From positions 195,501-259,500 of the forward strand of contig JACQJH010000001.1 in assembly GCA_016205145.1 (NCBI GenBank): 64,000 bases of DNA, written 5' to 3'. The translations under genes and the position numbers were made by a program. This document shows, in pieces, positions 10,152-62,604 of this stretch. Within the stretch, counting starts at the first letter, position 1. The number at the start of each line of letters is the position of its first letter. A model generated the notes under the pieces. It did not search any database. It had not been told where the DNA came from and saw only the letters and a program-made list of their open reading frames with translations. The DNA comes from Candidatus Iainarchaeum sp. GTDB lineage: Archaea; Iainarchaeota; Iainarchaeia; Iainarchaeales; JACQJH01.

Positions 10152-10469
10152 TCATTTTATCGCCTTTCCCGTCGCCACCGCCTCGCTGACGATGCCTATC
10201 CGCCTGGCTTTTTCCTCGAATTCTTCGGGCGTATAGCACAGGCTTTCAAGCTGCTGTTTTTCGTTCCAGTAATCGTACATTTTTTCCATTCTGCTGAAAA
10301 AATTGGTCCCCTCAAACTTCTTGCTGACGATTATGAAATCATAGTCGGATTCTTCCAAAGCCCCGCCTTTGGCCCTTGAACCGAAAAGGATTATTCTGGC
10401 GTCCGAGAAATCCTTTTTGACTTTGTGCGCGAATGCAGCGATTATTTGCTTATCTGTTTTTCCGCCCAT
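10152..10469 (-). CDS. Nucleotidyltransferase (MNT) domain protein, antitoxin-like partner of HEPN
   Basis: 105 aa with a minimal nucleotidyltransferase motif (IILFGSRAKGGALEESDYDFIIVS). Confidence 0.8.
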   Translation of the reverse strand: MGGKTDKQIIAAFAHKVKKDFSDARIILFGSRAKGGALEESDYDFIIVSKKFEGTNFFSRMEKMYDYWNEKQQLESLCYTPEEFEEKARRIGIVSEAVATGKAIK

Positions 10470-10825
10470 TCAAAAACCTCTTTTGCGTTTTCAAGCAGTT
10501 CTTCCGCCATTTCGTCGCTGTAAGCGTCTTTTGGAATCGCGTTTGCGGCATCCGGATAGCGTGTTTGCACGTAGTGCGGATTGATTTTCCTGCAAGCTGA
10601 AACGATTTTTTCCGGCGCTTCAAGCTCTTCGGCCAATGCAATAATATTGTGCAGTGTCGTGCCCTTGTTCTTTTGCAGGATAAAAATAGCTTTCAAGGCC
10701 TTTTCAGCCGCCTGCTGGCAGTAAAACGCGCATGCGTAATAGACATCCTGCGAAAAAAGGATTTTTGCTGTTTCGAGGTCGTCTTCCGCCGCGTTAAGCC
10801 AGTCTAGGACTTCCTTGCGCATCAT
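10442..10825 (-). CDS. HEPN domain protein (toxin-like partner of MNT)
   Basis: 127-aa all-alpha protein (YYACAFYCQQAAEKALKAIF...). It overlaps the MNT gene by about 28 nt, which is the typical HEPN/MNT two-gene arrangement. Confidence 0.8.
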   Translation of the reverse strand: MMRKEVLDWLNAAEDDLETAKILFSQDVYYACAFYCQQAAEKALKAIFILQKNKGTTLHNIIALAEELEAPEKIVSACRKINPHYVQTRYPDAANAIPKDAYSDEMAEELLENAKEVFEWAEKQISK

Positions 10826-20081: not shown

Positions 20082-20312
20082 GTGATTTGTTTGGCGAGAA
20101 AGTTCACTGTTGTCGTTGAAAAGGACCAAGACGGCGTTTTTGTAGCATCGGTTCCGGAACTACCCGGATGCCATACGCAGGCAGACTCCCTGAAAGAGCT
20201 TAAGGCAAACATAAAGGAAGCGATTGAAGCCTATTTGGAATCCATGGAAAAGGATGAGCTTCCAACAACTAAATTCGTCGGAATCAGGGAAGTCGAGGTT
20301 GCGGCAAAGTGA
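20082..20312 (+). CDS. hicB: HicB-family antitoxin (UPF0150)
   Basis: 76 aa (VVEKDQDGVFVASVPELPGCHTQADSLKELKANIKEAIEAYLES), the classic HicB N-terminal domain. Its stop overlaps the start of hicA. Confidence 0.75.
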   Translation: MICLARKFTVVVEKDQDGVFVASVPELPGCHTQADSLKELKANIKEAIEAYLESMEKDELPTTKFVGIREVEVAAK

Positions 20313-20536
20313 CAGCGCTCAGGCCAGTGAAGCCTGAGCAAATACTGAAAGTCGCCAAGCTGCTCGGCTTTGAACTTGTGCATGTCAGAGGCTCCCACCA
20401 CGTTTTCAAAAACGCGGCTGGCAAGCGGATAACTATTCCGGTCCACAAAGGCAAGCTTATTGGCAAGGGCCTGCTGTTGAAAATAATCAGGGAAGACTTC
20501 GGTCTGACGAAAGAAGAATTCGAACGCTTGTTGTGA
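20309..20536 (+). CDS. hicA: HicA-family mRNA interferase toxin (YcfA-like)
   Basis: 75 aa (KVAKLLGFELVHVRGSHHVFKNAAGKRITIPVHKGKLIGKGLLLKIIREDFGL), the HicA dsRBD-like fold motif. Confidence 0.8.
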   Translation: MTALRPVKPEQILKVAKLLGFELVHVRGSHHVFKNAAGKRITIPVHKGKLIGKGLLLKIIREDFGLTKEEFERLL

Positions 20537-32865: not shown

Positions 32866-33816
32866 TTAATTTGCGCTTGGCTTAAGGCTTTTTTTTGCGG
32901 CTTTTTTGCCTGGAAGCAGGCATTCTTTGTACTGGTTTATGTATGCTTTGTAGAGGTATTTGACGAACGGGCTTTCCTTTTTTTTCGCGTCGACTTCCCT
33001 CAGCATCAGGTAATACAGCATTTTTTCGGAGTTGAAAATGTTCAGCAAAGGATAATTGTTTTTGAACAGCAGATGGTTCATCGCCAGCCTTGAAATCCTG
33101 CCGTTCCCGTCCATGAACGGGTGGATTCTCACGATTTTCAAATGGGCCAATGCAGCGGTTTCAAAGGGGTGCAGGGTTTGTCCGGCCTGCTTAATCCATG
33201 AGAAAAATTTGTCCAGTTCCGGCTGGACCTGTTCCGGTTTCGGCGGCAGATAGTTTCCGACAATGTTCTGCCTCGTCCTGATTCTGCCTGCTTCGGGATG
33301 GATGCCATTCATTTCGATTGCATGGAGTTTAAGCAACAGGCTTTGGTCGAATTTGCCGTTGTAACCAAACAGGAAATCAATGCATTCTTTCATGTTTTCG
33401 ACTTCCCGGACGTCGCGCTTCGCATGCCTTGCCACAGGCTTCCCTTCAAGGATATTTTTCGTTTCCTCATAGCTCAGGGAATTGCCCTCGATTGCGTTGG
33501 TGTTGTAAATGAAGCTTATTATCTGCTCTTTTTCGGTTTTCCACAGGCCTTTGCCTATTTTGCGGGTTTTCAGGTAATTTTCCCTGAGCAGGTCGATTAT
33601 TTTCATCTGCTTCAGCGTCAAAATCCTCCCGATCGGCTGGGCAAGTTCAAGCTCCTTTTCGGCCTGGGCAAGGTTCGACAGGTCGGTTCCGACATATTTG
33701 CTTATTTTTTTCCACTTGTTTTTGGAGACACGGATGTTTTTCATCAGGTAAAAATACCCGCGGCCGCCGATTTTCTTTTTCTCGATATATGGCATGGTAA
33801 AAATTAGGGGGCACAA
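32866..33816 (-). CDS. Fic/DOC family protein (putative AMPylator)
   Basis: Canonical Fic motif HPFMDGNGRISRLAMNHLL in a 316-aa protein. Confidence 0.85.
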   Translation of the reverse strand: MCPLIFTMPYIEKKKIGGRGYFYLMKNIRVSKNKWKKISKYVGTDLSNLAQAEKELELAQPIGRILTLKQMKIIDLLRENYLKTRKIGKGLWKTEKEQIISFIYNTNAIEGNSLSYEETKNILEGKPVARHAKRDVREVENMKECIDFLFGYNGKFDQSLLLKLHAIEMNGIHPEAGRIRTRQNIVGNYLPPKPEQVQPELDKFFSWIKQAGQTLHPFETAALAHLKIVRIHPFMDGNGRISRLAMNHLLFKNNYPLLNIFNSEKMLYYLMLREVDAKKKESPFVKYLYKAYINQYKECLLPGKKAAKKSLKPSAN

Positions 33817-39210: not shown

Positions 39211-41271
39211 ATGGCATTCGAATTTTCGTTGTTTCACGTATTTTTGATGAGTTTATTGTCGCTTGTCTTCGTAGCCGTGCTTGTCCGCTACGTGCTAAGG
39301 AAGGACACCGGCACTGCGCAGATGCGCCAGGTTTCCGATGCAATCAAGGAAGGCGCCAACGCTTTCATGAAGCGCCAGTACACCACGATTGCAATACTGT
39401 CAATTGTGCTTGCAATACTGCTTTACGGCCTCTACCTGTTTTTGGGCAAGAGCCAGACCATTGCAATGATGACCGCCGGCTCTTTCATTCTCGGCGCGTT
39501 CTTTTCCGCTTTGGCGGGCTTCATCGGCATGTGGGTTGCGGTCAGGGCGAATATCCGCACTGCGTCTGCGGCAAAGAGAAGCCTTGGCGAGGCCCTTCTG
39601 GTTTCGTTCCGCGGCGGCGCGGTTTCAGGCATAACAATTGTTGCGTTGTCGCTTTTGGGCGTCAGCCTGATTTACTTTTTGTTCGGCGGCATTGAGCATC
39701 CGACTGAAGTGCCGTTCCTGATTGTAGGATTCGGTTTCGGGGCAAGCTTTGTGGCATTGTTTGCGCAGCTCGGCGGAGGCATTTACACCAAGGCGGCGGA
39801 TGTGGGCGCCGACCTTGTGGGGAAAATCGAGGCCGGCATTCCGGAGGACGATCCGAGAAACCCGGCGGTTATCGCAGACTTGGTCGGCGACAATGTCGGC
39901 GACTGCGCCGGGCGCGGCGCGGACCTGTTTGAAAGCACTGCGGCTGAAAACATCGGTGCAATGATTCTTGGAGTCGCCTTGTATCCTGTTTTCGGAGTCA
40001 ACGGCATACTCTTTCCCCTTGTGGCAAGGTCCTTCGGCCTGCTTGCAAGCATTGTCGGCATTCTTTCGGTGAAAAGCCTCGGCAACGAGGATCCCATGAA
40101 GAGCCTGAACAGGGGCTATTACGTTGCCACGATTCTCGCGGCAATCGCGTTTTATTTTGTCACAATGGCAATGCTCAAGAACATCTGGTTCTTTTATGCA
40201 GGGCTGGTCGGCATAGCCGCAAGCATTCTTTTCGTGTGGATTACAATCTATTACACTGAGCAGGCTTTCGATCCCGTGCGCAGCATTGCCAAGGCATCCG
40301 AAACCGGCCATGCAACGAACATCATCCAGGGCTTTGCGGTTGCGTTGGAGACAACGGTTGTCCCGGTCCTGGTGCTTTCGGCTTCGCTTATCCTGACATA
40401 CAATTTCGGCGTGTGGAGCGGAGTTCCGAACGGCGGATTGTATGGCACGGCGATTGCGACAATGGGAATGCTGAGCACTGCGGCTTTCATTCTTGCAATG
40501 GACACTTTCGGCCCCATAACAGACAATGCCGGCGGCATAATCCAGATGTCGAATGCGCCTGAATCGGTCAGGCGCATCACTGACAGGCTTGATGCTGTGG
40601 GCAACACGACAAAGGCTTTGACCAAAGGCTATGCAATCGGTTCGGCCGCTTTGGCGGCATTCCTGCTTTTCGCGGCTTACATGGATGAAGTGGCGCTTAT
40701 CACGGGCAAGGTTCTGGTCATTGACCTGGCGCAGGTGACGATTTTTGTCGGCGCATTCCTGGGCGCAATGCTCGTGTTTGCGTTTTCTTCCCTTGCAATC
40801 AGGGCTGTGGGCCAGACCGCTTCAACCGTTGTTGAAGAAGTCAGGAGGCAGTTCAAGGAAATCAAGGGCATAATGTCGGGAAAGGCAAAGCCGGATTATG
40901 CGACGTGCGTTGACATCTGCGCAAGAAATTCCCTTGCAGCAATGGTTGCGCCCGGACTCCTGGTCGTTTTCATGACTATCGCTGTCGGCATTCTTTTGAA
41001 GGCCGCGGCTGTTGCCGCTTTTCTGATGGTCGGCACAATCACCGGGATCCTCATGGCCCTGGTTTTGAACACTGGCGGAGGGGCCTGGGACAACGCCAAA
41101 AAATACATTGAGGATGGCGCGCACGGCGGAAAAGGCAGCGAAGCCCACAAGGCAGCCATTACCGGCGACACTTTGGGCGACCCGTTCAAGGATACTGCAG
41201 GGCCGAGCCTGCATGTCCTGGTGAAGCTTTTAGGCACGATAACGCTTGTGCTGGCTCCATTGTTCATCTAA
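39211..41271 (+). CDS. hppA: Membrane-bound H+/Na+-translocating pyrophosphatase
   Basis: 686 aa with the diagnostic motifs GGIYTKAADVGADLVGK, DNVGDCAGRGADLFES and GDTLGDPFKDTAGPS. Confidence 0.95.
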   Translation: MAFEFSLFHVFLMSLLSLVFVAVLVRYVLRKDTGTAQMRQVSDAIKEGANAFMKRQYTTIAILSIVLAILLYGLYLFLGKSQTIAMMTAGSFILGAFFSALAGFIGMWVAVRANIRTASAAKRSLGEALLVSFRGGAVSGITIVALSLLGVSLIYFLFGGIEHPTEVPFLIVGFGFGASFVALFAQLGGGIYTKAADVGADLVGKIEAGIPEDDPRNPAVIADLVGDNVGDCAGRGADLFESTAAENIGAMILGVALYPVFGVNGILFPLVARSFGLLASIVGILSVKSLGNEDPMKSLNRGYYVATILAAIAFYFVTMAMLKNIWFFYAGLVGIAASILFVWITIYYTEQAFDPVRSIAKASETGHATNIIQGFAVALETTVVPVLVLSASLILTYNFGVWSGVPNGGLYGTAIATMGMLSTAAFILAMDTFGPITDNAGGIIQMSNAPESVRRITDRLDAVGNTTKALTKGYAIGSAALAAFLLFAAYMDEVALITGKVLVIDLAQVTIFVGAFLGAMLVFAFSSLAIRAVGQTASTVVEEVRRQFKEIKGIMSGKAKPDYATCVDICARNSLAAMVAPGLLVVFMTIAVGILLKAAAVAAFLMVGTITGILMALVLNTGGGAWDNAKKYIEDGAHGGKGSEAHKAAITGDTLGDPFKDTAGPSLHVLVKLLGTITLVLAPLFI

Positions 41272-41590: not shown

Positions 41591-41736
41591 TGCCCCGGCC
41601 GGGATTCGAACCCGGGTCGCGGCCTCACCCCGCTCTTGAATTTTTTGGAAAATCCTTGAGAGGGCCGAGTGCTTTCGGCAACAGCTGCTTTTTTTTATAA
41701 AAACAAACCGTTTTAGCCGGACTACACCACCGGGGC
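41591..41736 (-). tRNA. tRNA-Glu(CTC) carrying two introns (about 40 nt in the D-loop plus about 31 nt at 37/38)
   Basis: Exon 1 GCCCCGGTGGTGTAGTCCGGCTAAA, exon 2 CACTCGGCCCTCTCA, exon 3 AGGCCGCGACCCGGGTTCGAATCCCGGCCGGGGCA. Once spliced it matches the archaeal tRNA-Glu/Gln scaffold (D-arm GTGTAGTCCGGC, T-arm CCGGGTTCGAATCCCGG). The anticodon stem CGGCC/GGCCG is perfect. Confidence 0.65.
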
Positions 41737-42498
41737 ACTGCAGAATTTTTTGAACCTGTTTATGTGCTTTTTGTTGCTGAACCCGATTTCAGTGAAATAA
41801 CGCAGGACTTCTTTAGAATCTCCCATTGAGCACTGCATTGTATTCCTGTCCTTCTTTTGGGTCCATTTAGATACTCTGTAGCCCAATATTTTAAATGCCT
41901 TTGTTATGCTGCTTTGGATTGTAGGCGATGCCGTGGCGAACCAGATTGTGGGCGTTTTGTGCCTGCGCGTTTTCGGGTAAACGCTTCCGTCAGTGTCAAT
42001 CAATCCCCTGACACAGGCTTTAAGGTAACCGCTTTTTCCAAGAACCCAGCAGGGAATTGCCGCGCCATTCGTGGTTTTATTGCCGTTTTTTATGCCAAAA
42101 TGCATCAGCGTGTGCACCAAATTTTTGCTTTGCTTGAATATGACGACAGCGTTTCCGGTTTTTGGAAATTTTATGCTGAATTCGGTTCCAAACACTTTTT
42201 TGAACAGGCCCGAAGTATAATTTGTCAGATAATCAAAATCGTTCCCGCGATGGCCTATAATTCTTATTTGGTAAATGCTTTTTTCTTTTATAACCTGGCA
42301 GTTTCCGTCGCCAAGCATTATGCCGATAATTTCCGCAAGCTCCGCGCTTTTCTTTTTTGCAAGCAATTTCGGTTTCATCGGCAAGAATTTGCCGTTCTTC
42401 CGCGGCTGCAGCCGGCAATTACCCATAATGTACTGTTGTTTTTGTGGACAAAAGGGGTTTGCCAAGTGGCTTTCCCCTGATTCTTGATTTGGCCTCAC
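41722..42498 (-). CDS. Free-standing LAGLIDADG-family homing endonuclease (two LAGLIDADG motifs)
   Basis: Motif 1 AEIIGIMLGDGN and motif 2 RGLIDTDGSV are separated by about 100 aa, the arrangement of single-chain LAGLIDADG enzymes. The 3' end overlaps the 5' end of tRNA-Glu by about 15 nt. Confidence 0.75.
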   Translation of the reverse strand: MRPNQESGESHLANPFCPQKQQYIMGNCRLQPRKNGKFLPMKPKLLAKKKSAELAEIIGIMLGDGNCQVIKEKSIYQIRIIGHRGNDFDYLTNYTSGLFKKVFGTEFSIKFPKTGNAVVIFKQSKNLVHTLMHFGIKNGNKTTNGAAIPCWVLGKSGYLKACVRGLIDTDGSVYPKTRRHKTPTIWFATASPTIQSSITKAFKILGYRVSKWTQKKDRNTMQCSMGDSKEVLRYFTEIGFSNKKHINRFKKFCSAPVV

Positions 42499-46932: not shown

Positions 46933-47041
46933 TGCCGGTGGCGAGATATGAACTCGCGGCCTCTTGATTATGAGTTTCGCCCCGCAACACAAAAAAGCTG
47001 AATTGCAGTCAAGCGCTCTAACCAGGCTGAGCTACACCGGC
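46933..47041 (-). tRNA. tRNA-Cys(GCA) with ~34-nt intron at 37/38 (intron 46969..47002)
   Basis: The 5' exon GCCGGTGTAGCTCAGCCTGGTTAGAGCGCTTGACTGCAA and the 3' exon ATCAAGAGGCCGCGAGTTCATATCTCGCCACCGGCA give perfect acceptor and anticodon stems. The T-loop TTCATAT is slightly atypical. A TATA-like CTTTTAAAAGCC sits about 35 nt upstream. Confidence 0.6.
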
Positions 47042-50538: not shown

Positions 50539-51747
50539 ATGTTCCGCTGGCTCAAAAACCTGTTCAGGCCGTCAAGAGGCCCGCACTATTTGATTGAATT
50601 CAGGTTTCATGGTTACACAAAAAAGTATCTGAAGGAAACCATTTTTGACGTCTCGAAAAAGTTCCGCGTTTCAGGCGTTACCAAAAAGCACGTTGTTCCG
50701 CATATAAGCTTGGTTGGGCCGTTTCAAACAAGAAACCAAAGAGAAGTCGTGTCCAAGTTTGTGAACGTGTCCAAAAAATATGGGCGCATAAACTTCAAGT
50801 TGTCAGGATTCCGCCACTTTGACGATCGGGTGGTTTTCGTTGATGTCGAGTCTTCCTCTGAACTGGCCAAATACCGGCAAGACCTGTTCAAAAGCTTGGA
50901 GCCAGTCATTTACACGACCGACACCGACTACCTTGAACCATTCGCGTTCCATTCTACAGTCGCCTTCAAAGACATCCAACACAAATTTGACAGGATTTTC
51001 TCCTATTTGGATAAACAAAAGCCTAAACAAATAAACCAAACCCTGCTCAGGGCCACGTTGTTAAAAGGCGGAAAAATTCTATGCGAATACGATTTCATTC
51101 AAAAAAGGCTGCTCAAACGGAAAGAGGCACTAGACAAAAAACTAATGAAAAAGACGATTGGCATATTGAAGGAAACCAAAAACGCGGACATCACAAAAAT
51201 ACCTGAATTTACGGCCAAAGAAAGCGAAGGAAAACGCACTTTTCTTATAAGCGACCTCCACTTGGACCATGCCAATATTATAAAATTCTGCAAAAGGCCA
51301 TTCAAGAATGTCGAAGAAATGAACCGCGCACTAGTTGATAATTGGAACAAAACTGTCTCTAAAAACGACACGGTTTATTTTTTGGGTGATATGGCATATG
51401 GCAAAAACAGCAGGTCGGCAAAATACTGGCTTTCCAAACTAAACGGCAAAATAGTGTTCATTGAAGGCAATCATGAGGATATTGGCAACATGAAATCATA
51501 CACGCAAATAATACTAAATTTTGGGCAAGAACGATTTCTCTTAATTCATGATCCAGCGCTCAAACCAGCCGACTGGCAAGGATGGGTTATCCACGGGCAC
51601 AAACACAACAACGATTTGTCTGGTTACCCATACATTAACAAAAAAAACAAAACAATCAACGTAAGCGCAGAATTGGTAAATTACACCCCAAAACGGTTAG
51701 ATGAGGTTTGCAAAGAAATTGGGGTGTTTGAATTCAAGATTCTTTAG
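50539..51747 (+). CDS. Fusion protein: N-terminal 2H phosphoesterase (LigT/2'-5' RNA ligase-like) + C-terminal calcineurin-like metallophosphoesterase
   Basis: Two H-x-S/T-x motifs (HISLV, HSTVA) about 85 aa apart in the N-terminal half. Metallophosphatase motifs (LISDLHLD ... GDMAYG ... GNHED ... GHKH) in the C-terminal half. Confidence 0.7.
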   Translation: MFRWLKNLFRPSRGPHYLIEFRFHGYTKKYLKETIFDVSKKFRVSGVTKKHVVPHISLVGPFQTRNQREVVSKFVNVSKKYGRINFKLSGFRHFDDRVVFVDVESSSELAKYRQDLFKSLEPVIYTTDTDYLEPFAFHSTVAFKDIQHKFDRIFSYLDKQKPKQINQTLLRATLLKGGKILCEYDFIQKRLLKRKEALDKKLMKKTIGILKETKNADITKIPEFTAKESEGKRTFLISDLHLDHANIIKFCKRPFKNVEEMNRALVDNWNKTVSKNDTVYFLGDMAYGKNSRSAKYWLSKLNGKIVFIEGNHEDIGNMKSYTQIILNFGQERFLLIHDPALKPADWQGWVIHGHKHNNDLSGYPYINKKNKTINVSAELVNYTPKRLDEVCKEIGVFEFKIL

Positions 51748-52280: not shown

Positions 52281-53555
52281 TTATTCCAAATCCCAAAGCT
52301 CTTTGAGCGCGTCAAGCCTGACTGTTTTCTGTTCGCCGGTTTCAAGGTTTTTGACTGCAAGCTCTTTTTTCTGCAGTTCGTCTTCGCCGGCAATAATCGC
52401 GAATTTGATACCCTGCTTGCTTGCGAATTCAAGGTTTTTTGAAATGCCCCTTCCAACCAAATCAATGTCAGTGTTCAGGCCCAGCCTTCTCATTTCCTGC
52501 ACGATTTTAAGGCATTCTTTTTGCGTTTTTCCGATCGGAATGACAAAGAATTTCACCGGGTTTTCTACGCCGAGCTTTTCTTCGACGACATCAAGGAGCC
52601 TGTCGATTCCAAAAGAAATGCCGATTGCCGGTGTAGGCGAACCGCCATAGCTTTCAATGAGATTGTCATATCGGCCGCCCCCGCCGCAGGAAATTCCCGC
52701 ACTTGAAACCTCGAAAACGTTTCCAGTGTAATATTCCAATCCGCGTGCCAGGCTAAGGTCGACTTTTACTTTTTTTGACAGGCCGTTTTCTTCAAGCAAA
52801 TCCAATAGTTCTTTGAGTTCCTTGAACCCGTCTTTTTCTTTCACGTCCTTGGGCAGGCCTTCGAAATCGTTTTTCTTGAGCGTTTCAATGATCTTGTCGG
52901 AAATGCCTTTTTGTTCCAATTCCTTCCTGACTTCTTCTTCGCCGATTTTTTCCAGTTTGTCCAGGCTCCTGAAACAGTCCTTGATTTGGCGTTCTTCCAC
53001 GCCATTCGCCTGCGCGACGGCTTCGAGCAGTTTTCTGTTATTCAGCCTTATGTAGAAATCAACGTTTATTTCTGAAAAAAATTCGGCTGCAAGCGCAATC
53101 AGTTCAAAGTCAGCGAAAACGCTTTTCACTCCGATGATGTCGGCATCCGCCTGTGTAAACTCGCGATACCTTTTTGCGCCCGGCCTGTCATACCGGTAAA
53201 CCCTTTCGATCTGGTAGCGCTTGAACGGTTTCGGCAGCTGCGGGTTTGTTGCTATGACACGTGCCAATGGAACCGTCAGGTCGAAGCGCAGGCCAAGCTC
53301 TCTCTCGGACTTGTCCTTGAAGTAGTAGATTTCTTCCTTGATTGCCTCGCCGCCAGAGCCTTTCTTTGCAAGCAAGGCGAAGTCTTCCACGACGGGCGTC
53401 TGCATTGGCTGGAAACCGTATTTTTCAAAGATGCGCCTGGCTAAACCTTCGAGGAAAAGTTTTTTGCGCGCCTGTTCGGGCAGGATGTCGCGCATTCCCC
53501 TTATCGCCTGGAATTTTTCTTCAGCCATGCAATTCACTTTCAGATTTCCTGTCAA
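52281..53555 (-). CDS. hisS: Histidyl-tRNA synthetase
   Basis: Class II aaRS motifs and HisRS-specific blocks (FQAIRGMRDILP, FKRYQIERVYRYDRP, GGGRYDNL). Confidence 0.9.
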   Translation of the reverse strand: MTGNLKVNCMAEEKFQAIRGMRDILPEQARKKLFLEGLARRIFEKYGFQPMQTPVVEDFALLAKKGSGGEAIKEEIYYFKDKSERELGLRFDLTVPLARVIATNPQLPKPFKRYQIERVYRYDRPGAKRYREFTQADADIIGVKSVFADFELIALAAEFFSEINVDFYIRLNNRKLLEAVAQANGVEERQIKDCFRSLDKLEKIGEEEVRKELEQKGISDKIIETLKKNDFEGLPKDVKEKDGFKELKELLDLLEENGLSKKVKVDLSLARGLEYYTGNVFEVSSAGISCGGGGRYDNLIESYGGSPTPAIGISFGIDRLLDVVEEKLGVENPVKFFVIPIGKTQKECLKIVQEMRRLGLNTDIDLVGRGISKNLEFASKQGIKFAIIAGEDELQKKELAVKNLETGEQKTVRLDALKELWDLE

Positions 53556-53617: not shown

Positions 53618-54265
53618 TTATTCCGAACGCGCTGGCTTTCTGACGTGGAATACTCTTGTCGGATAAGTTCCCGGAATAGGTTTTGTGTTTTCCGTGATTA
53701 TTTCAAATCCTGCGGCTTTGAGTTCGCTATGCCAGGTGTTTATCTCTTTTTGTCCGCCTATTTGGATGAGCATGTTGAATTTGGCTTCCCCGCCCGGCCT
53801 GAGTATTCGGTATAATTCGGCAAAGGCTGTGCTTTTGGGCGTTGCGTGTGCTATGCCGAAATGCGAGTAAACAAAGTCGAAGTAATTGTCTGGGCGGCGC
53901 GTGTTGTGCGCGTGCGCAACATGCCATAAAACGTTTTCTTGTCCGCGCCATTCCGGGGCGCGCTTTAAGCTGAGGCCATGTGCTTCCATTTCGGGGTATT
54001 CTCTGGCAAGTTGCATGATGCTTGTTCCTTCTTTACAGCCTAAATCAAGGACCCTGATTTTTCTGTCAGGCGTTGCTTGGTGAATCCTTCTTATGTCCTC
54101 GATATTAAACCCCAGATTTTGGTAAATTGTTGGCAGGCCGGTTTTGCTCACCGACCACCTGCACAGGGGCCTGTTTCCTTCGTAAAGTTTGATTATGTCT
54201 CTGAGTCTTCGGCCCACTTTTGCCCTATCTTCAGGGGATTCGGGTTTTCTATGGCCCGGTTCCAA
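53618..54265 (-). CDS. Class I SAM-dependent methyltransferase (Methyltransf_11-like)
   Basis: Motif I VLDLGCKEGTS and motif II/III spacing in a 215-aa protein. Confidence 0.75.
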   Translation of the reverse strand: MEPGHRKPESPEDRAKVGRRLRDIIKLYEGNRPLCRWSVSKTGLPTIYQNLGFNIEDIRRIHQATPDRKIRVLDLGCKEGTSIMQLAREYPEMEAHGLSLKRAPEWRGQENVLWHVAHAHNTRRPDNYFDFVYSHFGIAHATPKSTAFAELYRILRPGGEAKFNMLIQIGGQKEINTWHSELKAAGFEIITENTKPIPGTYPTRVFHVRKPARSE

Positions 54266-54333: not shown

Positions 54334-54716
54334 TTACTTTTTTGCTTTTTTTGCCTCATTCATTTTCGCTTTTGCTTTAAGGATTTGCCCTATCTCCGCG
54401 GCCGGCGCTTTTTGGTCGAACCTGATTTGAATGGTTTTTTTTCCGGTCACATAACCTTTTTCTTCGAGCGCTTTGCGGTCTTTACTTTGAAGCGCGAACG
54501 CCAGGCCGAAGCCGGCGTGGCTCTTGAATGCGGCAAACCCGGCAAGAAGGCCCTGGTATTTGTAGAATGGCACGCCCCAGCTGATGCTTTCCTCCGCCTT
54601 TGGCACGGCTGATTTGATTATTTTCCTGATTTCCTTGAGCGTCGGCTGCGCTTCTATGCCTGCGCCGGCAATGTACTCGTCGACGTTTTTTGCGCTGTAA
54701 TTTTTCACTATTCCAC
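54334..54716 (-). CDS. DUF1801 (YdhG/YjbR-like) domain protein
   Basis: C-terminal 125 aa of track ORF 54334..54993 ([16 protein letters not shown]...[28 protein letters not shown]). The upstream part of that ORF overlaps hisG in another frame. The likely start is a GTG near 54716. Confidence 0.5.
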
Positions 54717-55604
54717 GACCTTGTTCAAGGGAAACTCGACTATGCCTTCCGCGCCGGCACCCTTCAGTTTCGGAATGAGCGTCCTGACGTCGTCTATTTT
54801 GACGATTGTGAGAACGTCGAACCAGCCTTCCTTGGAAAGCTTTGAAACCGTTGGATTGTTCAATGATGGCAGGACTTTGAGGACTTTTTGCAGGTTTTTT
54901 TCCTGCACGTTCATCATCAACCCCGCAAGGGTTTGCGCCGCGATTGCGCCTTTGAGCAGGGTTGCGATTTCGTCGATTTTCTTTCTCTTCCACAAATCCT
55001 TTGCCGCGCCTTTGTTTGCAATCAGTTTCGTGTTGCTTTCCATGAGCGTTTCGACAATGCGCAGGCCGTTCGCGCGCAAACTGCTTCCGGTTTCAGTCAC
55101 TTCAACGATTGCGTCGGCAAGCGTCGGCGGCTTGACTTCGGTTGCGCCCCATGAAAATTCCACTTCGGCTTTGACGTTGTTTTTTGCAAGCCATTCCTTT
55201 GTGAATCCCACAAGTTCGGTTGCGATCCTCTTTCCCTGCAGGTCCTTCACGCCTTTGATTTTCGAGTCGTTCGGCACAGCCAGAACCCATTTGACCCTTC
55301 CAAGGCCGGATTTTGCGTAAACAAGGTCCGCGATTTCGTCAACGCTTGACTTGTTTTCAAGAATCCAGTCCTTTCCCGTCAAGCCAAGGTCGATTGCGCC
55401 CTGTTCGACGTAACGCGACATTTCCTGCGCCCTGATGAGCACGCACTCTATTTCATCGTCGTTTATTTTCGGGTAATACGAGCGCTCTTCCGCGCGGATG
55501 TCATAACCGGCTTTCTTGAACAATTCTATTGTCGAATTCTGCAGGCTTCCCTTGGGGATGCCAAGCTTGAGTTTTTTGCCGCTTCCATCTTCTTTGCCTT
55601 TCAT
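54708..55604 (-). CDS. hisG: ATP phosphoribosyltransferase (long form with regulatory domain)
   Basis: 298 aa ([23 protein letters not shown] ... [13 protein letters not shown]) plus a C-terminal ACT-like region. Confidence 0.9.
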
Positions 55605-56650
55605 TTCAATTCCTCCGCTTTCCTGAAAAAACAGCTCCTCTTGCCCGTGTGACAGGCAACATTGCCTTCCTGCTTCACTTTAAGAAGAATCGCGTCGTTG
55701 TCGCAGTCAAATCTCACTTCCCTGACAATCTGGAAGTTTCCGGAAGTTTCGCCTTTCACCCATAATTTTTGCCTGCTTCTGCTCCAATAGCAGGCCTTTC
55801 CTTCTTTCAGGGTGCGGCGAAGGCTTTCCCTGTTCATGTATGCAAGCATAAGCACTTCTCCCGTATTCCAGTCCTGTGCGATTGCAGGCAGCAGGCCGTT
55901 TCCCTTTTCAAAGTCAAGTTCATCGGGCAGGATGTCGGATAATTTTATCTTGCTAGTGTACAATGACATGCCCAATGCGCAGTCCACGCCGATGCCTTCA
56001 AGCCTGCGCGCCTCTTCAAGCGAGGCAATCCCGCCGGCGGCAATGATGCGGTTTTTCGTTGCCTTGCGAAGCCTTTGCACCGCTTCAAAGTCGATGCCTT
56101 TCATGAGGCCCTCTTTTTCCACGCACGTGAACAGGAATGCAGAGCACAGGCCTTCAAATTCTTTCGCCTTTTGCAAATAATCCGCCCCGGTTTTTTCCTG
56201 CCAGCCTTTCACAACAACCTCGCCTTTCCATGAATCCAATGCAACAATGATTTTTTCCTTTCCAATTTGCGCGCCAAGCTTTTGCAGGAATTCCTTGTTT
56301 GCGGCACTGCCGATGATGACGCGCTTTGCGCCAGCGCCGATGAGCGCTTTGGCTTTTTCCACGCTGTCGATTCCGCCGCCGGTGTTTGCATTCACGACAG
56401 AGCAGATTTTTTTGACGGTTGCGAGATTTGAGCCTATGCGTTTTGCCGCGTCCAAATCAATGACCTGCACTTCCCTGAAAGCGGAGAATTTTTCCGCGAA
56501 TTTTTCGGGAGCAGACGCTATGCGAATCTTCTCGGTTTTGCCCTGCTGCAGCTGGACAACTTTTCTGCCTTTCAAGTCAATGCTTGGCAACAACATTTTC
56601 ATTCCCTCACTACAATTCCCTTTTCTTTCAGGTATGCCTTGACTTTCCAC
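55601..56650 (-). CDS. hisA-hisI: Bifunctional fusion: ProFAR isomerase (HisA) + phosphoribosyl-AMP cyclohydrolase (HisI)
   Basis: The N-terminal ~240 aa are a HisA TIM barrel ([15 protein letters not shown] ... GGGIDS ... IAAGGIAS). The C-terminal ~105 aa are HisI ([50 protein letters not shown] ... [11 protein letters not shown] ... ACHTG). Confidence 0.8.
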
Positions 56651-57378
56651 ACCGGAAACTCGTTGAAATGGAAAATGCTTGCGGCAAGCGCGGCATCGGC
56701 CTTTCCTGTTTCAAATACATCCACAAAGCTTTCAAGGTTTCCCCCGCCCCCGCTTGCAATGACTGGAACGTTAACGCTTTCCGAAACCGCTTTTGTCAGT
56801 TCGAGGTCGAAGCCCTCTTTTGTTCCGTCGCGGTCCATGCTTGTCAGGAGGATTTCGCCTGCGCCAAGTTCAACCGCTTCTTTCGCCCATTCGAGGGCGT
56901 TTTTTCCCGTGAATTTGCGGCCGCCGTATTTCGAGCACTCCCACCAGACTTTTCCTTTCTCTTCCCTTTTTTTCGCGTCAATCGCCAGCACGACTGCCTG
57001 GTTGCCATACGCTTTTGCAATCTCCGAAATGAGGCGAGGCCTTTCCAGCGCGGCAGTGTTTATGCTTACCTTGTCCGCGCCTGCTTCGAACACACTTTTT
57101 GCGTCCGCCAGTGAGCGTATTCCGCCCCCGACAGTTAACGGCACGAAAACTTCCTGCGCGGTTTTTTCGATTACGTCAACCATTGTTTCTCTTCTCTCGG
57201 AACTTGCGGTGATGTCCAGAAAGACGATTTCGTCAGCGCCCTGCGCGTAATACGCTTCGGCCTGCTCCCACGGCACGCCGGCGTATTTTATTTCCTTGAA
57301 CTGGACTCCTTTGACGACTCTTCCTTGCGCGACCGAAAGGTCGCAGTCCAGACAGGGAATGATTCGTTTTGCGAGCAT
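56599..57378 (-). CDS. hisF: Imidazole glycerol phosphate synthase cyclase subunit
   Basis: 259 aa beginning [16 protein letters not shown], with HisF barrel motifs ([11 protein letters not shown] ... GGGIRS). Confidence 0.9.
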
Positions 57379-57390
57379 TTGAAACCAGTT

Positions 57391-57795
57391 TTATTCTCTA
57401 TTCATTAATTCAGTTTGAACGCGGGTGTACATTGTAATTAATCCATTTGCAATAATGTCCGTTGTGTGTTCGGGCTGTTCTGTCGTGCGTTCGTGTTCTA
57501 TTTCAATGAACCGGTTTATCCTTTCCATTGTGCTTTCAAGGACTTCCGTGGGAATGCTTGTGAGCGGCCTATTGCGTTCAACCAATCTTAGTGTCAGCCT
57601 TTCGAGTTGCTGGTCTGGGCCCAATCCGGTTTCCAGCAATTTTTGCAGTTCCGGAATCACATGTTGCTGGGCCGGCATATCCGTTCCGGGGACGGTATGT
57701 GTCGATTCTCTCACATCTTGCCCAAAATAACCCTGCGCTATATTCCGGAAACGTTCTTTAAGCCCTTCCGGGTGCGCCTCATGTCGTCTCTCCAT
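57391..57795 (-). CDS. Hypothetical 134-aa protein embedded in the his operon
   Basis: ORF between hisF and hisH on the same strand with short spacers. No similarity to HisE that I can recognise. Confidence 0.4.
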   Translation of the reverse strand: MERRHEAHPEGLKERFRNIAQGYFGQDVRESTHTVPGTDMPAQQHVIPELQKLLETGLGPDQQLERLTLRLVERNRPLTSIPTEVLESTMERINRFIEIEHERTTEQPEHTTDIIANGLITMYTRVQTELMNRE

Positions 57796-57804
57796 AGTAT
57801 CACC

Positions 57805-58407
57805 TCAAATTTCAACAAAATTCTCCAGCACCTTAAGTCCAGCGGCTCCGCTTTTTTCCGGGTGGAATTGCACGGCAAAAACGTTGTCTTTTTCAACAGC
57901 GGAACAGTATTTTCCGCCGTAATCGGTTTCGCCAGAGACGATGTCCTTGTCGAACGGCTTGGCATAATAGCCGTGCACGAAATAAAAGAACGAATTGTCG
58001 GGAACATCCTCGAGCAGCGCGCTTTCCTTTGCCTTTTCGACCTGGTTCCAGCCGATCTGGGGAACTTTCAGGTTTTTTCCTTCAAATTTTTCAACCGTGC
58101 CCTGCAAAACTTTCAGGCCTTCGCTTTCAGGGCTTTCCGCGCTTTCCTCGAACAGCGCCTGGAGGCCGATGCAGATGCCGAGGAAAGGCTTTCCTTCCTC
58201 GATTGCCCATTCGATTGCGTAGTCCAGTTTTTTTTCGCGCAGTTCGCGCATTGCCTCGCCGAAATTGCCCACGCCGGGAAAAACGACCTTGCTCGCTTTT
58301 CCCACCTGTTCAGGAGTTTTCGCAATGACTGCCTTTTCGCCGATTTTTCGGAAGGCGTTGCGGACGCTCTGCAAATTGCCCCTGCCATAATCAATGATTG
58401 CAATCAT
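57805..58407 (-). CDS. hisH: Imidazole glycerol phosphate synthase glutaminase subunit
   Basis: Class I GATase triad context (GICIGLQ ... HPE) in a 200-aa protein. Confidence 0.9.
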   Translation of the reverse strand: MIAIIDYGRGNLQSVRNAFRKIGEKAVIAKTPEQVGKASKVVFPGVGNFGEAMRELREKKLDYAIEWAIEEGKPFLGICIGLQALFEESAESPESEGLKVLQGTVEKFEGKNLKVPQIGWNQVEKAKESALLEDVPDNSFFYFVHGYYAKPFDKDIVSGETDYGGKYCSAVEKDNVFAVQFHPEKSGAAGLKVLENFVEI

Positions 58408-59036
58408 AGCATTCCCTTGGTGCTCGGCAAAAACTTCTGCCGCCTGTCAAATTCAACCGCGCAACGCAACGCGCGCGCGAAAGCCTTGAACAGCGCTTCA
58501 ACCAGGTGGTGTGCATTCTTTCCGTAAACAACTTTGACGTGGATGTTTGCCTTCAGCTCGTTTGCCACTGCCTGGAAGAATTCTTCCACAAGCTCGGTCG
58601 GAAACCCGCCGATGCGGTCGAGCGGAAACTTTGCGTCGAACACAAGCTTTGGCCTGCCGCTCAAATCAATCGCGCAGAACGCAAGGCTTTCATCCATTGG
58701 CACGTATTCCCAGCCGTACCTTGCAATGCCCTTTTTGTCGCCAAGCGCTTTAGCTATTGCCTGTCCGAGGACAATGCCGGTATCCTCGACAGTGTGGTGC
58801 AAATCCACTTCCAAGTCGCCTTTTGCCTCAAGCGAAACGTCGATGAGGCTGTGCTTGGAGAAAAGTTCGAGCATGTGGTTGAAGAACCCGATTCCGGTTT
58901 CAATTTCATACCTGCCTTCGCCGTCAAGGTTTACCGAGGCTTTGATTTTGGTTTCAGTGGTGTTCCGTTCAATCTCCGCTTTCCTCACGAATGATTTCGC
59001 CTTTTTTTCGTTTGCCTTTCCTTTGCCTTCGCTCAT
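58404..59036 (-). CDS. hisB: Imidazoleglycerol-phosphate dehydratase (monofunctional)
   Basis: IGPD motifs (GIGFFNHMLE ... DLHHTVEDTGI). Confidence 0.9.
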   Translation of the reverse strand: MSEGKGKANEKKAKSFVRKAEIERNTTETKIKASVNLDGEGRYEIETGIGFFNHMLELFSKHSLIDVSLEAKGDLEVDLHHTVEDTGIVLGQAIAKALGDKKGIARYGWEYVPMDESLAFCAIDLSGRPKLVFDAKFPLDRIGGFPTELVEEFFQAVANELKANIHVKVVYGKNAHHLVEALFKAFARALRCAVEFDRRQKFLPSTKGML

Positions 59037-60124
59037 TTCGTTTCACCCAAAACCTTTTCCAGCGCGGAGCAGAATTTTTTCATCTGTTCTGGCGTGCCGA
59101 TGCTGATGCGGATGCAGCCTTCCAGTCTCTCATAACCGCTCCTGTCCCTTACAAGGAAGCCTTTTTCCTTAAGCTTTTCGGCGATTGCTTTGGCGTTTTT
59201 GCCAAAGCGTGCGACGAGAAAATTCGACTTGCTCGGAAAGCGCTTCACGCCTTTTTCGTCAAGGAACTTTTCAAGAATTGCGCGCCCCGCTTCAACCTGT
59301 TTCACATAATCCTGCATGTAAGCCGGGTCCTTCAGCGCTTCCGTTGCCGCGAGCGCGCTCAAAGCGGTGATGCTGTAAGGCGACTTCGCCTTTTTCAGCG
59401 TTGAAATGATTTTTTCGTTTCCCAGAGCGTATCCGATGCGCATTCCGCCGAGGCCCATTGCCTTTGAAAAGGTTTTGAGCACGACAAGGTTGTCGAACTC
59501 TCCAATCCTGCCGGCAACGGTTTCTTTCGTGAATTCCGAGTATGCTTCGTCGACGATTGCCAGGCAGCCTTCCGCCCGCGCGGCCCTGATGATTTCGATG
59601 AGGTCTTTTTCCGGAATTTCGGTGGCAGTCGGATTGTTGGGGTTGCAGAGAATGACTGCCCGGCTGCCCTTGATTTCCGCGAGCACTTTTTGCGTCGGAA
59701 ATGAGAGGTCTTCATTGTACAGCGGCTTTGCAATTTTCGCCCCTTGCAGTTCAGCGTAAAAGTAAAACATGGCAAAGCTCGGAGTCGGAATCACGATCTT
59801 TCCGTTGCCCACAAAGCATTCAATGCATCCGCGGATGGCCTCATCCGAGCCGTTGAAGGGCACGGCGTTTTCCGGCTTCGCGTTGTTGTAATCCGCAATC
59901 GCTTTTGTCAGCTCCGAGTATTCCGGATACGCGGACAGCCTTTCCGCTGAAACGTTTTTGATTGCCGTGAGAACGCGCGGGCTTGGGCCGAGAGTGTTTT
60001 CGTTGAAGTCAAGCCTCATTTTGCCCAGCCTGCTGGCTGTCGGAGGATTGTACGGCTTGAGCTTTTTCACATTGCCGGTTTCGGAAATCATTTCATTCAC
60101 TTCCCGCATGCTCCGGCTTTCCAA
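59033..60124 (-). CDS. hisC: Histidinol-phosphate aminotransferase
   Basis: Class II aminotransferase, 363 aa, with the PLP-Lys context FSKAMGLGGMRIGY. Confidence 0.9.
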   Translation of the reverse strand: MESRSMREVNEMISETGNVKKLKPYNPPTASRLGKMRLDFNENTLGPSPRVLTAIKNVSAERLSAYPEYSELTKAIADYNNAKPENAVPFNGSDEAIRGCIECFVGNGKIVIPTPSFAMFYFYAELQGAKIAKPLYNEDLSFPTQKVLAEIKGSRAVILCNPNNPTATEIPEKDLIEIIRAARAEGCLAIVDEAYSEFTKETVAGRIGEFDNLVVLKTFSKAMGLGGMRIGYALGNEKIISTLKKAKSPYSITALSALAATEALKDPAYMQDYVKQVEAGRAILEKFLDEKGVKRFPSKSNFLVARFGKNAKAIAEKLKEKGFLVRDRSGYERLEGCIRISIGTPEQMKKFCSALEKVLGETK

Positions 60125-62303
60125 AAAGCTTTGGCAGTTCGTTTATGTCTTTCAACACGGCGTCCGCGCCTTTTTCCAAATAAAATTTTTTGCCCGGCGA
60201 GAACGCGCCCGTCAAAACCATTGCGCAAAAATTGCCTTTCAGCGGGCCGCCCGCGTTTTTCACCATTTCAAGGTCGTCAATCATGTCACCCACATACAAA
60301 ACCTTTTCGGCATTGAGCCTTTTTTTCATCCATTCCAGCGGCGCGGCGTTTGGTTTCAACTTTCCGCCGGTTTCGCTTGCGGTTTCATCCGAAAAAATGT
60401 TTTCTTTTGCAATCGCCGCTGCAAGGCCGCATCTTTCAAGGCAAAGCATTGCTTCGTTGAACGTGCGCCCGGTTATCACGCCGAGCTTTTTGCCGTTGTT
60501 TTTCAGCCACTCGACGGTTTTCCTTGAAACAATCATTTTTTCGTTTTCGCAAAGCCCTTTTTTCACGCCCAATCTTGCCGGTTTGCCGAAAAACTCCGTG
60601 AAACGCCTTTCGCCGAGGTATAGTTCCTCGAACGCGTCCATGATTTTTTCGCGGTCGTATTCGCGTGCAATGCTTTCCCACTTTTGGCCGGCAATCTGCC
60701 TTGCAGCCCTTTCTGCGCCTTCAAAGCCTTTGTCCAAGCCGATTTTCGGGGCGAATTCTTCCCCGCTTACGCGAAAGCCGTTTTTTTGCAGCAACGCAAC
60801 CAGGCTTAAAGCATAGGCAACGTGCCAGTCGTTGTTGAATCCCCCCAAGCGCTTGAACAAAGCGGTTTTCTGCACCGGAAACCTTTTTCCGTACAAAACT
60901 TCGACCGCTTTCACTGTTGCAATCCTGTAAGTGTTGCTTACATCTGCCAGCACGCCGTCAATGTCCAAAACAATCGCGTCAACGCCAGAAAACCCGCTTC
61001 CGGGCGCGCTTTTTCCGCGGTCCAAGCGTATTTCAACGCTTTTTTTGTGCGCTTCAAGGCCCTCGGAATCAGCCATTGCACCAATCGTTTTTTGCAGGCC
61101 TTTCAGGCCTTTTTCAGAGATTTTCTGGAACGCGATGACCTTGACAAAGTCCCTTGCCGACAGGCCAGCGCGTTGTTTTGCCGTTCCGCCGGTTGGCAGG
61201 ACGTGATTTGTGCCGGAACAGTAGTCTCCCGCGGCTACCGGGCTGAAGTCTCCGAGAAAAACGCTTCCAGCCGCGCTTATTTGCGGCAGAAGCCTTTCCG
61301 CCCTGCCGAAAAGCACCAAGTGTTCCGGGCCGATTTGGTTCACGATGCCCGCGCAGTCCTGCAGATCCCTTGCAATGACAACAGCCGAATTGGTTTCAAG
61401 CGCCCTGCGTGCTGTTTCGGCATTCTTTGCTGTTTCAAGCTGAACCGAAAGCGCGGCTTTGGCTTTTTCTGCGAGCGCCCTGTCCGGCGTGACAAGAATG
61501 CAGACGCTGTTTGAGTCGTGCTCGGCCTGCGTCAAAAGCTCGGCCGCAACGATTTTCGCGTCGGCTTTCGAGTCCGCTACAACGCACACCTCGCTCGGCC
61601 CGGCAACAAAATCAATGGAAACCTGGCCGAAAACAAGCCTTTTCGCGGTTGCGACAAAAACGTTTCCCGGCCCGGCAATCTTTTGCACGCGCGGCACGGT
61701 TTTGGTGCCGAATGCCATTGCGGCAATTGCCTGGCTTCCGCCCAGAGTGAAAATCCTGTCCACGCCGGCGATGTCGGCTGCGACAAGCACGAGCGGGTTA
61801 GTGCCATCCTTTTTCGGCGGAGTGCACATCACAATCTCTTTCACGCCCGCGGCTTTCGCAGGCAAGGCATTCATCAAAACGCTTGAAGGCAAAGGATACC
61901 TGCCCGCTGGAACATAAATGCCGACAACGTCCAATGGCCTGACAATTTCCCCAACAACCACGCCTTGCGCATTTTCAGTTTTCCATTCTTTCGGCAGCTG
62001 CCTTTTTGCAAAAGCAAGAATGTTTTTTTTCGCGAGCTTCAAGGCTTCAACCTGTGCCTTCGAAACTTTGGAATAAGCCGCCTTAATCTCCGCACTGCTC
62101 ACTTCCATGCTTTCAGGGGAAAGCCGCACGCCATCGAATTTTTCCGAAAACGCAATCAGCGCGGAATCGCCTTTTTCCCTGACTTCCGCGATAATGCTTC
62201 GGACGGTTTCTTCGACATTCTTGTCCGGCGCCTCCAGCCCGGCAAGGAACGCTTCAAGCTCTCCGGGTTTTTCGGCGGTTATTTCTTTCAGCATGTAGAC
62301 CAC
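60093..62303 (-). CDS. hisD: Fusion: histidinol dehydrogenase (HisD) + C-terminal HAD-superfamily phosphatase domain (candidate histidinol-phosphatase)
   Basis: The N-terminal ~430 aa are HisD (zinc/NAD motifs QAEHDS ... DYCSGTNHVLPT). The C-terminal ~300 aa carry HAD motifs I (VLDIDGVLAD), II (VITGR) and III/IV (YVGDMIDDLEMV). Confidence 0.85.
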   Translation of the reverse strand: MVYMLKEITAEKPGELEAFLAGLEAPDKNVEETVRSIIAEVREKGDSALIAFSEKFDGVRLSPESMEVSSAEIKAAYSKVSKAQVEALKLAKKNILAFAKRQLPKEWKTENAQGVVVGEIVRPLDVVGIYVPAGRYPLPSSVLMNALPAKAAGVKEIVMCTPPKKDGTNPLVLVAADIAGVDRIFTLGGSQAIAAMAFGTKTVPRVQKIAGPGNVFVATAKRLVFGQVSIDFVAGPSEVCVVADSKADAKIVAAELLTQAEHDSNSVCILVTPDRALAEKAKAALSVQLETAKNAETARRALETNSAVVIARDLQDCAGIVNQIGPEHLVLFGRAERLLPQISAAGSVFLGDFSPVAAGDYCSGTNHVLPTGGTAKQRAGLSARDFVKVIAFQKISEKGLKGLQKTIGAMADSEGLEAHKKSVEIRLDRGKSAPGSGFSGVDAIVLDIDGVLADVSNTYRIATVKAVEVLYGKRFPVQKTALFKRLGGFNNDWHVAYALSLVALLQKNGFRVSGEEFAPKIGLDKGFEGAERAARQIAGQKWESIAREYDREKIMDAFEELYLGERRFTEFFGKPARLGVKKGLCENEKMIVSRKTVEWLKNNGKKLGVITGRTFNEAMLCLERCGLAAAIAKENIFSDETASETGGKLKPNAAPLEWMKKRLNAEKVLYVGDMIDDLEMVKNAGGPLKGNFCAMVLTGAFSPGKKFYLEKGADAVLKDINELPKLFGKPEHAGSE

Positions 62304-62368: not shown

Positions 62369-62604
62369 GATGACGGCGAGGCCTGTGCCGGGAATCGAGC
62401 CCGGGCCGGGGGATAACTGCAACCATGCGGTTTTTCGCAAACCTTTTTGGAAAAGGTTTCTTGCGGTTTTTCGCAAACCTTTTTGGAAAAGGTTTCTTGC
62501 GGTTTTTCGCAAACCTTTTTGGAAAAGGTTTCTTGCGGTTTTTCGCAAACCTTTTTCCAAAAGGTTTCCACAGTCCCCAATGCTGCCACTACACCACACA
62601 AGCC
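62369..62604 (-). tRNA. tRNA-His(GTG) with encoded G-1 and a 164-nt intron at 37/38 (intron 62404..62567)
   Basis: The 5' exon is G-1 plus GCTTGTGTGGTGTAGTGGCAGCATTGGGGACTGTGG. The 3' exon ATCCCCCGGCCCGGGCTCGATTCCCGGCACAGGCC gives a perfect anticodon stem GGGGA/TCCCC, and the acceptor stem has one G-U. The discriminator is C73, as expected for tRNA-His. Intron flanks AAACC...GGTT can pair as in BHB motifs. Confidence 0.75.
62416..62559 (-). repeat. Four tandem 36-nt palindromic repeats making up most of the tRNA-His intron
   Basis: Three copies of GCGGTTTTTCGCAAACCTTTTTGGAAAAGGTTTCTT plus one variant; each unit contains an AAACC...GGTTT inverted repeat. The track ORFs 62254..62601(-) and 62425..62778(+) are periodic-translation artefacts of this array. 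Confidence 0.9.

Follow-up and report, generated by a model that had tools for sequence, protein, structure and literature searches.

The 64,000-nucleotide stretch of Candidatus Iainarchaeum sp. DNA analysed here (assembly GCA_016205145.1, contig JACQJH010000001.1, positions 195,501 to 259,500 of the forward strand; hereafter the window) carries a histidine biosynthesis (his) cluster in which hisA and hisI are fused into a single gene, hisAI. The cluster is compact, occupies the minus strand at ~52.3–62.3 kb, and runs in the order hisD-HAD, hisC, hisB, hisH, ORF134, hisF, hisAI, hisG, a DUF1801 gene, a methyltransferase gene and hisS, ORF134 being a short open reading frame (ORF) between hisH and hisF. 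The window genes were deposited under a 'Candidatus Diapherotrites archaeon' metagenome-assembled genome, on a contig of 612,963 bp. It is probable, in our assessment, that HisAI is a bifunctional enzyme truncated from a HisA-HisI-HisE triple fusion by one loss of HisE, that hisE lies unlinked elsewhere in the genome, and that ORF134 is an orphan unrelated to the missing enzyme.

The hisA-hisI fusion gene

The mechanical ORF (55601..56650, minus strand, 349 codons) reaches back to a GTG at 56650. Translation almost certainly begins instead at the ATG at 56602; this ATG overlaps the hisF stop codon as ATGA, so a product of 333 amino acids (aa) is expected; the same 333-aa product was called by NCBI (MBI4052665.1) and in an independent Logan assembly. 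The deposited name of MBI4052665.1, 'phosphoribosyl-AMP cyclohydrolase', covers only one of its two domains.

Both domains were matched by Pfam in one reading frame of the mechanical ORF: His_biosynth (PF00977) at residues 20–235 (E 2.6e-48; 164.9 bits against a cutoff of 23.6; profile positions 2–227 of 228 covered) and PRA-CH (PF01502) at residues 268–342 (E 4.1e-36; 123.1 bits against a cutoff of 27). The HisI half also exceeded the cutoff of NCBIfam NF000768 (167.4 against 126 bits) and aligned to Protein Data Bank (PDB) entry 1ZPS (E 2.8e-36) with the DCDxD and ACHTGxxSCF motifs kept. The HisA half scored below the NCBIfam equivalog cutoffs (TIGR00007, 167.8 against 228.95 bits; NF010112, 165.6 against 243 bits). 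Its assignment as the HisA paralogue stands, because these two HisA models gave the best full-length barrel matches and a separate HisF (TIGR00735) adjoins.

Residue conservation was assessed in an alignment of 127 fused homologues by counting positions conserved in at least 97% of sequences. All such positions (65 of 65) were retained in HisAI. In the HisA half these include D9, D51, D123 and the loops G75–G77 and G190–G191; by reference to Thermotoga maritima HisA (D8/D127), we take D9 and D123 to be the catalytic aspartates, located where strands beta1 and beta5 end, and the glycine loops to bind phosphate. In the HisI half the metal-binding motifs D299-C300-D301-x-D303, C317-H318 and C324 were retained and align with 1ZPS. 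Judged by these residues, both halves look catalytically competent. HisAI stops 9 residues past the SCF motif and carries no vestige of HisE.

The fusion proposed in the preliminary description is therefore real, with PF00977 and PF01502 in one frame, NF000768 above its cutoff and the conserved residues intact. A sequencing, assembly or frameshift artefact joining separate hisA and hisI genes is almost certainly the wrong explanation, and was already refuted: the NCBI record and the separate Logan assembly agree on the 333-aa product, and ~100 triple fusions occur elsewhere. Other samples contributed 18 independent clusters (90% identity) with the same two-domain HisA-HisI architecture, so the fusion is not an assembly artefact.

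The homologue set consisted of the 120 best clusters from a database of 5.8 billion proteins. PF00977 and PF01502 were combined in all 120, and ~100 of these were HisA-HisI-HisE proteins (~408 aa, also matching PF01503) with source labels of Melainabacteria, Patescibacteria, other bacteria and archaea. Further triple fusions were added by a GTDB scan, in 'Ca. Iainarchaeum sp.' (L020), Micrarchaeota (L030), WOR-3, Clostridia and Deltaproteobacteria, and the triple fusion P0011 (locus L007) lies among archaeal S27e, S6e and aIF2 genes. Over both domains HisAI is 50–56% identical to triple fusions. The fusion had been described as unusual, which is overstated given these counts and the HisA/F-HisIE fusions in DPANN archaea mentioned in a 2024 paper (PMC11237513). 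The list of his fusions in Fani et al. 2007 (hisA/F, hisIE, hisHF, hisNB, hisIED) does not include HisA-HisI(-HisE), and Archaea were stated there to have no his fusion besides hisIE (PMC1963479). This kind of fusion is already known, though barely described, and the main value of the present case is corrective: HisA-HisI(-HisE) proteins are abundant in metagenomes and are routinely mis-annotated by one domain.

[quoted passage not shown] The two steps are consecutive, not separated by another as had been supposed, and the fusion is biochemically conventional for that reason. The C-terminal HisI would convert PR-AMP to ProFAR by opening the purine ring, and the N-terminal HisA barrel would then isomerise ProFAR to PRFAR; the fusion could plausibly hand ProFAR directly from HisI to HisA (channelling).

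The triple fusions (P0011 and P0017 in DPANN; P0099, 'A2287_01875', in Candidatus Melainabacteria) share with HisAI the HisA-then-HisI order, the short linker, the conserved residues and the operon setting (hisF upstream, hisG or hisS nearby), whereas HisAI has no PRA-PH domain and belongs to a monophyletic DPANN clade of proteins without HisE (E-less). Bifunctional HisIE (Enterobacteria, Acinetobacter, plant HISN2; PDB 6J2L, 7BGM) contains a homologous HisI (E 1.6e-27 to 6J22) and follows the same logic of fusing neighbouring pathway steps, but HisAI pairs HisI with the enzyme that follows it (HisA, step 4), not with the one that precedes it (HisE, step 2), and has HisI at the C-terminus, whereas HisIE has it at the N-terminus. 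The HisI half has its best solved relative in the stand-alone archaeal HisI of Methanothermobacter thermautotrophicus (1ZPS), in which the DCDxD and C-H...C motifs are identical; 1ZPS is monofunctional, while the window HisI is fused to HisA.

Proposed loss of the HisE domain and the supply of step 2

HisAI gave no Pfam match to PF01503 and is for that reason classed as a truncated variant, not as a member of the triple fusions. PF01503 was missing from 21 of the 120 best clusters, two of which (P0056, P0094) were contig-end fragments of triple fusions. A neighbour-joining tree was built from the HisA+HisI region (101 of 122 tips triple fusions). In this tree 18 E-less proteins, including that of the window, were monophyletic and sister to archaeal triple fusions, and P0035, a genuine E-less protein, was placed just outside the clade. 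E-less proteins end 2–17 residues past the HisI SCF motif, with the exception of P0010 (49-residue low-complexity tail), and no HisE remnant was found at the C-termini of the E-less proteins compared. Because the E-less proteins form one clade that is sister to archaeal triple fusions, the simplest reading suggests that the domain was lost once, in the Diapherotrites/Micrarchaeota lineage: one DPANN clade would have dropped the C-terminal HisE (phosphoribosyl-ATP (PR-ATP) pyrophosphohydrolase) from a widespread HisA-HisI-HisE ancestor. The order hisD...hisH-hisF-hisAI-hisG(-hisS) was kept in six E-less contexts (window, L001/L002, L003/L004, L006, L084, L085). The clade offers a clean natural case of a domain lost from a multi-enzyme fusion with the operon still under selection.

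That no hisE is recognisable in the cluster, as first noted, was upheld by profile searches. Hidden Markov model (HMM) searches of the operon proteins (Pfam, NCBIfam) matched HisA and HisI in the fusion and the PRA-PH/MazG families in none, and an HMM built from 85 fused HisE domains found nothing in the six-frame translation of the window (best E 1.5). No MazG, Nudix or PRA-PH match was obtained by Pfam in 20 further window ORFs (~19–52 kb), among which the sole pyrophosphatase was a membrane H+-PPase (39211–41271), which acts on inorganic pyrophosphate. PRA-PH was likewise not found in the flanks of five other E-less contexts (±10 kb for L001/L002, L003 and L085; less for L004, L006 and L084).

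The architecture of HisE is fluid in DPANN. Other DPANN genomes carry HisE as the C-terminal domain of HisAI, fused to HisI as HisIE, or encoded by a small gene that separates hisG from hisS (order hisG-hisE-hisS in L036, L008, L009 and L011). A GTDB scan with a DPANN HisE alignment gave matches in other DPANN genomes and none in the E-less assemblies. In L008, L009, L011, L012, L036 and L010 only hisG-hisE-hisS or hisE-hisS was seen, with no hisA or hisI in 1.5–8 kb upstream, depending on the contig; such sets resemble what is left of a former his cluster. The HisE domain of L015, L018, L024 and L028 ends an ORF of ~290–330 aa, which is possibly a HisG-HisE fusion.

Step 2 might simply be missing from an incomplete or decaying pathway, the archaeon making do with help from a host, or with hydrolysis that is spontaneous or non-specific. 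Many DPANN archaea are reduced symbionts, and his pathways do erode in this group, since some relatives retain hisG-hisE-hisS alone. We nevertheless consider decay very unlikely in the window lineage: none of the other his genes is missing or disrupted, and they are translationally coupled, all family-conserved HisAI residues are retained, and the ratio of non-synonymous to synonymous substitution rates (dN/dS) of hisH and hisF is 0.04–0.05 against the sister strain L005, from which we conclude that the pathway is in use. Since the remaining operon genes are intact and strongly constrained by purifying selection, something must still carry out step 2.

The most likely supplier, on the present analysis, is a stand-alone hisE unlinked to the cluster and located elsewhere in the genome, because this is the usual archaeal arrangement: archaeal hisE, when unfused, is normally not linked to other his genes (PMC1963479). 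A stand-alone archaeal HisE (PF01503), of which none was found in the window, would then provide step 2. Several observations weigh against this explanation. Both positions taken by HisE in other DPANN genomes are empty of it in the window (the C-terminus of HisAI; the hisG-to-hisS slot, filled by the DUF1801 gene and the methyltransferase gene), and hisE was located neither in the window's 64 kb of the 612,963-bp contig nor for any E-less relative. None of 26 DPANN-type HisE clusters had a member on that contig, which is weak evidence given that the search was limited by its word index, and the tree behind the single-loss reading has no support values.

Non-orthologous replacement, by which the E-less clade would have no PF01503 HisE and PR-ATP would be hydrolysed by an unrelated enzyme (e.g., Nudix, a house-cleaning NTP pyrophosphatase, the HAD domain or DUF1801), is unlikely, although the fusion has shed its HisE domain and selection on the operon has nevertheless persisted. 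HisE was not seen in the six E-less operon neighbourhoods, none of the 26 DPANN-type HisE clusters was placed on the 613-kb contig, and the HAD superfamily includes pyrophosphatases, the window HAD domain giving a weak PpaX match (NCBIfam, E 2.5e-4). However, no candidate is common to the E-less operons, the DUF1801 and methyltransferase genes being confined to the window lineage. A conserved gene of unknown function was considered as a substitute and rejected, since the ORFs found in L001 and L003 upstream of hisD are unrelated to each other and have no domains. The fusion of HAD to HisD here and to HisC in relatives points to a role as histidinol-phosphate phosphatase, literature searches turned up no non-orthologous HisE, and an unlinked hisE is normal in Archaea. 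A broader proposal is that the whole DPANN clade (Diapherotrites/Micrarchaeota, at least 18 clusters) discarded HisE and has no PF01503 anywhere, step 2 being carried out by a new non-orthologous PR-ATP pyrophosphatase, a role that in the window lineage might fall to the structurally novel ORF134 family. We regard this proposal as quite unlikely. A genome-wide absence of hisE from the E-less clade would indicate the first non-orthologous PR-ATP pyrophosphohydrolase; should hisE turn up, which is the likelier outcome, the window is an ordinary example of unlinked archaeal hisE.

ORF134 at the hisH-hisF junction

ORF134 is preceded by a GAGGTGA ribosome-binding site, and its frame is intact in the sister strain L005 (92% identity). 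Its dN/dS against L005 is 0.29, with 13 of 25 changes non-synonymous where 78% are expected under neutrality (p = 0.004). By these measures of coding constraint, ORF134 is a genuine translated gene under purifying selection. Its GC content at third codon positions (GC3) is 0.47, against 0.56–0.64 for the other cluster genes, and its synonymous divergence from L005 (dS) is 0.15, against 0.42–0.56 in flanking genes (p = 2e-5). On composition and divergence ORF134 has the character of an accessory cassette and not of a core enzyme.

Only three relatives were recovered when 1.84 billion representatives were searched exhaustively with HMMER. One of these (P0155, 30% identity) occupies the same hisH-hisF slot in a strain whose flanking DNA is 83–94% identical, and is preceded in that slot by a 152-aa paralogue. 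The junction is a variable slot, with one ORF134 in the window, two divergent paralogues in a close relative (L081, 206–1111) and nothing in distant relatives; in L001, L006, L084 and L085 hisH directly adjoins hisF, and both ORF134 and HisE are lacking. ORF134 is probably an unrelated orphan gene, either recently acquired or of fast turnover, inserted between hisH and hisF. Another relative, P0154, is a protein of 670 aa with 11 perfect 60-aa repeats matching ORF134 residues 36–79, and could be either a true repeat protein or the product of misassembly.

The earlier judgement that this 134-aa ORF does not look like HisE was borne out by profile comparison. ORF134 had no Pfam or NCBIfam match and was not listed by the HMM of 85 fused HisE domains; hhalign against HisE gave probabilities of 0.09% and 0.2%, and phmmer and profile searches against PDB sequences were negative. 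The structure prediction that had been proposed as a check for a MazG-like fold was carried out with AlphaFold. From a three-sequence alignment ORF134 was modelled as an all-alpha protein of five helices (predicted local distance difference test (pLDDT) 90.9, predicted template modelling score 0.84), two of the five models being near pLDDT 50; an AlphaFold 2 model from a two-sequence alignment reached a pLDDT of 52. Foldseek found no significant neighbour of the model in PDB or BFVD (best PDB template modelling score (TM-score) 0.42), and no MazG or HisE structure stood among the listed top 50 matches. Residues H45, R76, E100, R103, E106, D113, N117, E129 and R133 are invariant in the ORF134 family, but the spacing of E100, R103, E106 and D113 is unlike the EExxE...ExxD of HisE (invariants E46, E47, E50, E63, D66). 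ORF134 as a HisE homologue is rejected on profile searches, hhalign, motif spacing and the Foldseek matches listed. An RNA or mobile element was also considered and rejected, no Rfam match, terminal repeats, or PHROG or PADLOC match being found for ORF134.

That ORF134 is itself the missing PR-ATP pyrophosphohydrolase, as an extremely diverged MazG-like protein or a new all-alpha enzyme, is highly improbable. Its place inside the operon, strong ribosome-binding site and purifying selection would fit an enzyme, as would the homologue and adjoining paralogue in the same slot of a related strain, the confidently modelled five-helix fold and invariant residues that could form a metal- and phosphate-binding site. 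These features are set against the lack of profile or listed structural similarity to HisE or MazG, the differing acidic spacing, the atypical GC3, the anomalously low dS, and an identity of 30% between strains whose flanks are far more similar. Since E-less relatives do without it, ORF134 is unlikely to be a general substitute for HisE.

The histidine cluster and other window features

Coordinates are collected in Table 1. The ATG of hisG overlaps the hisAI stop codon (ATGA). The conserved end of the cluster is hisS, which takes the same position in L001, L003 and L085. The DUF1801 gene and the S-adenosylmethionine (SAM) methyltransferase gene have the operon orientation, yet are not in the clusters of relatives.

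Table 1. Features of the his cluster and its upstream region (window coordinates).
Feature	Position	Strand	Details
Four tandem 36-bp repeats, upstream of hisD	62426..62568	.	98% matching; each with palindrome AAACCTTTTTGGAAAAGGTTT
hisD fused to C-terminal HAD-type hydrolase	60093..62294	-	733 aa, MBI4052671.1; PF00815 + PF00702/PF13419
hisC, histidinol-phosphate aminotransferase	59033..60109	-	TIGR01141 294 bits; start per Logan call, mechanical ORF to 60124
hisB, imidazoleglycerol-phosphate dehydratase only	58404..59036	-	No phosphatase domain; PF00475, NF002109
hisH, glutaminase subunit	57805..58407	-	TIGR01855 238 bits
ORF134, hypothetical	57391..57795	-	MBI4052667.1 (HY394_01370); lineage-specific orphan, five predicted helices
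hisF, cyclase subunit	56599..57378	-	TIGR00735 373 bits
hisA-hisI fusion gene (hisAI)	55601..56602	-	333 aa; MBI4052665.1
HisA (ProFAR isomerase) TIM-barrel domain	55946..56593	-	Residues ~4-219 of 333
HisI (PR-AMP cyclohydrolase) domain	55613..55933	-	Residues ~224-330 of 333
hisG, long form with HisG_C regulatory domain	54708..55604	-	MBI4052664.1; Pfam/NCBIfam
DUF1801 gene	54334..54708	-	PF08818 E 3e-15; starts on last base of hisG
Class I SAM methyltransferase, between hisG and hisS	53618..54265	-	Pfam
hisS, histidyl-tRNA synthetase with anticodon-binding domain	52281..53555	-	TIGR00442 386 bits

The HAD domain of HisD was matched by PF00702 (E 7.4e-13) and PF13419 (E 1e-9), and by TIGR01548 with 113 bits, under its cutoff of 140. 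Related Diapherotrites carry the HAD domain on hisC, not on hisD (L001 6338–7933; L084 1560–3301). The window HisD-HAD protein is the sole member of its 90%-identity cluster, and its NCBI name is histidinol dehydrogenase only. The domain is probably the archaeal histidinol-phosphate phosphatase, judging from fusion partners and operon content, because HisD and HisC flank that step, hisB has no phosphatase domain and the operon contains no other phosphatase. In the bifunctional HisB of Enterobacteria (HisNB: HAD-type histidinol-phosphatase plus imidazoleglycerol-phosphate dehydratase) a HAD phosphatase is likewise fused to a his enzyme; unlike HisNB, the HAD domain (TIGR01548-like, below cutoff) is on HisD in the window and on HisC in relatives, and the window HisB is the dehydratase only. 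Together the HisD-HAD and HisC-HAD fusions would constitute a Rosetta-stone assignment for archaeal histidinol-phosphate phosphatase, an enzyme whose identification is often difficult.

The tandem repeats lie 120–265 bp upstream of the hisD start, and the palindrome AAACCTTTTTGGAAAAGGTTT occurs at 4 sites against 0.01 expected. The core CCTTTTNNNAAAAGG was found in L001 upstream of hisD and just after hisG, and in L003 inside an unknown ORF upstream of hisD. The repeats could serve the his operon as an operator array or form a hairpin resembling a terminator.

A separate hairpin element of ~40 nt, TTCG[GA]AACCAAGGC-hairpin-GCC[GA]AGTAAGC, recurs in the window. Its conserved 5' core, CGAAACCAAGG / CGGAACCAAGG, is present at eight sites (plus strand, 12627 and 15236; minus strand, 62996, 62908, 62346, 35935, 35625 and 21223), at three of which (62996, 62908 and 62346) the full element was read. 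Several copies adjoin tRNA genes, and one lies 14–50 nt upstream of the hisD start; translated, the element yields a recurring spurious peptide, '...PWFRT...'. Two intron-containing tRNA genes missed by ARAGORN were found with Rfam (46933–47041 and 41591–41736, minus strand), one of which lies beside an ORF with a LAGLIDADG domain (41722–42498).

Other window genes were seen at 10152–10825, 20082–20536, 32866–33816 and 50539–51747. A nucleotidyltransferase/HEPN pair and a HicB/HicA-like pair were recognised in the window by eye, and a Fic-domain protein by Pfam. A 402-aa window protein has an N-terminal 2H phosphoesterase domain (Pfam, PF13563) and, by eye, a C-terminal metallophosphoesterase-like motif.

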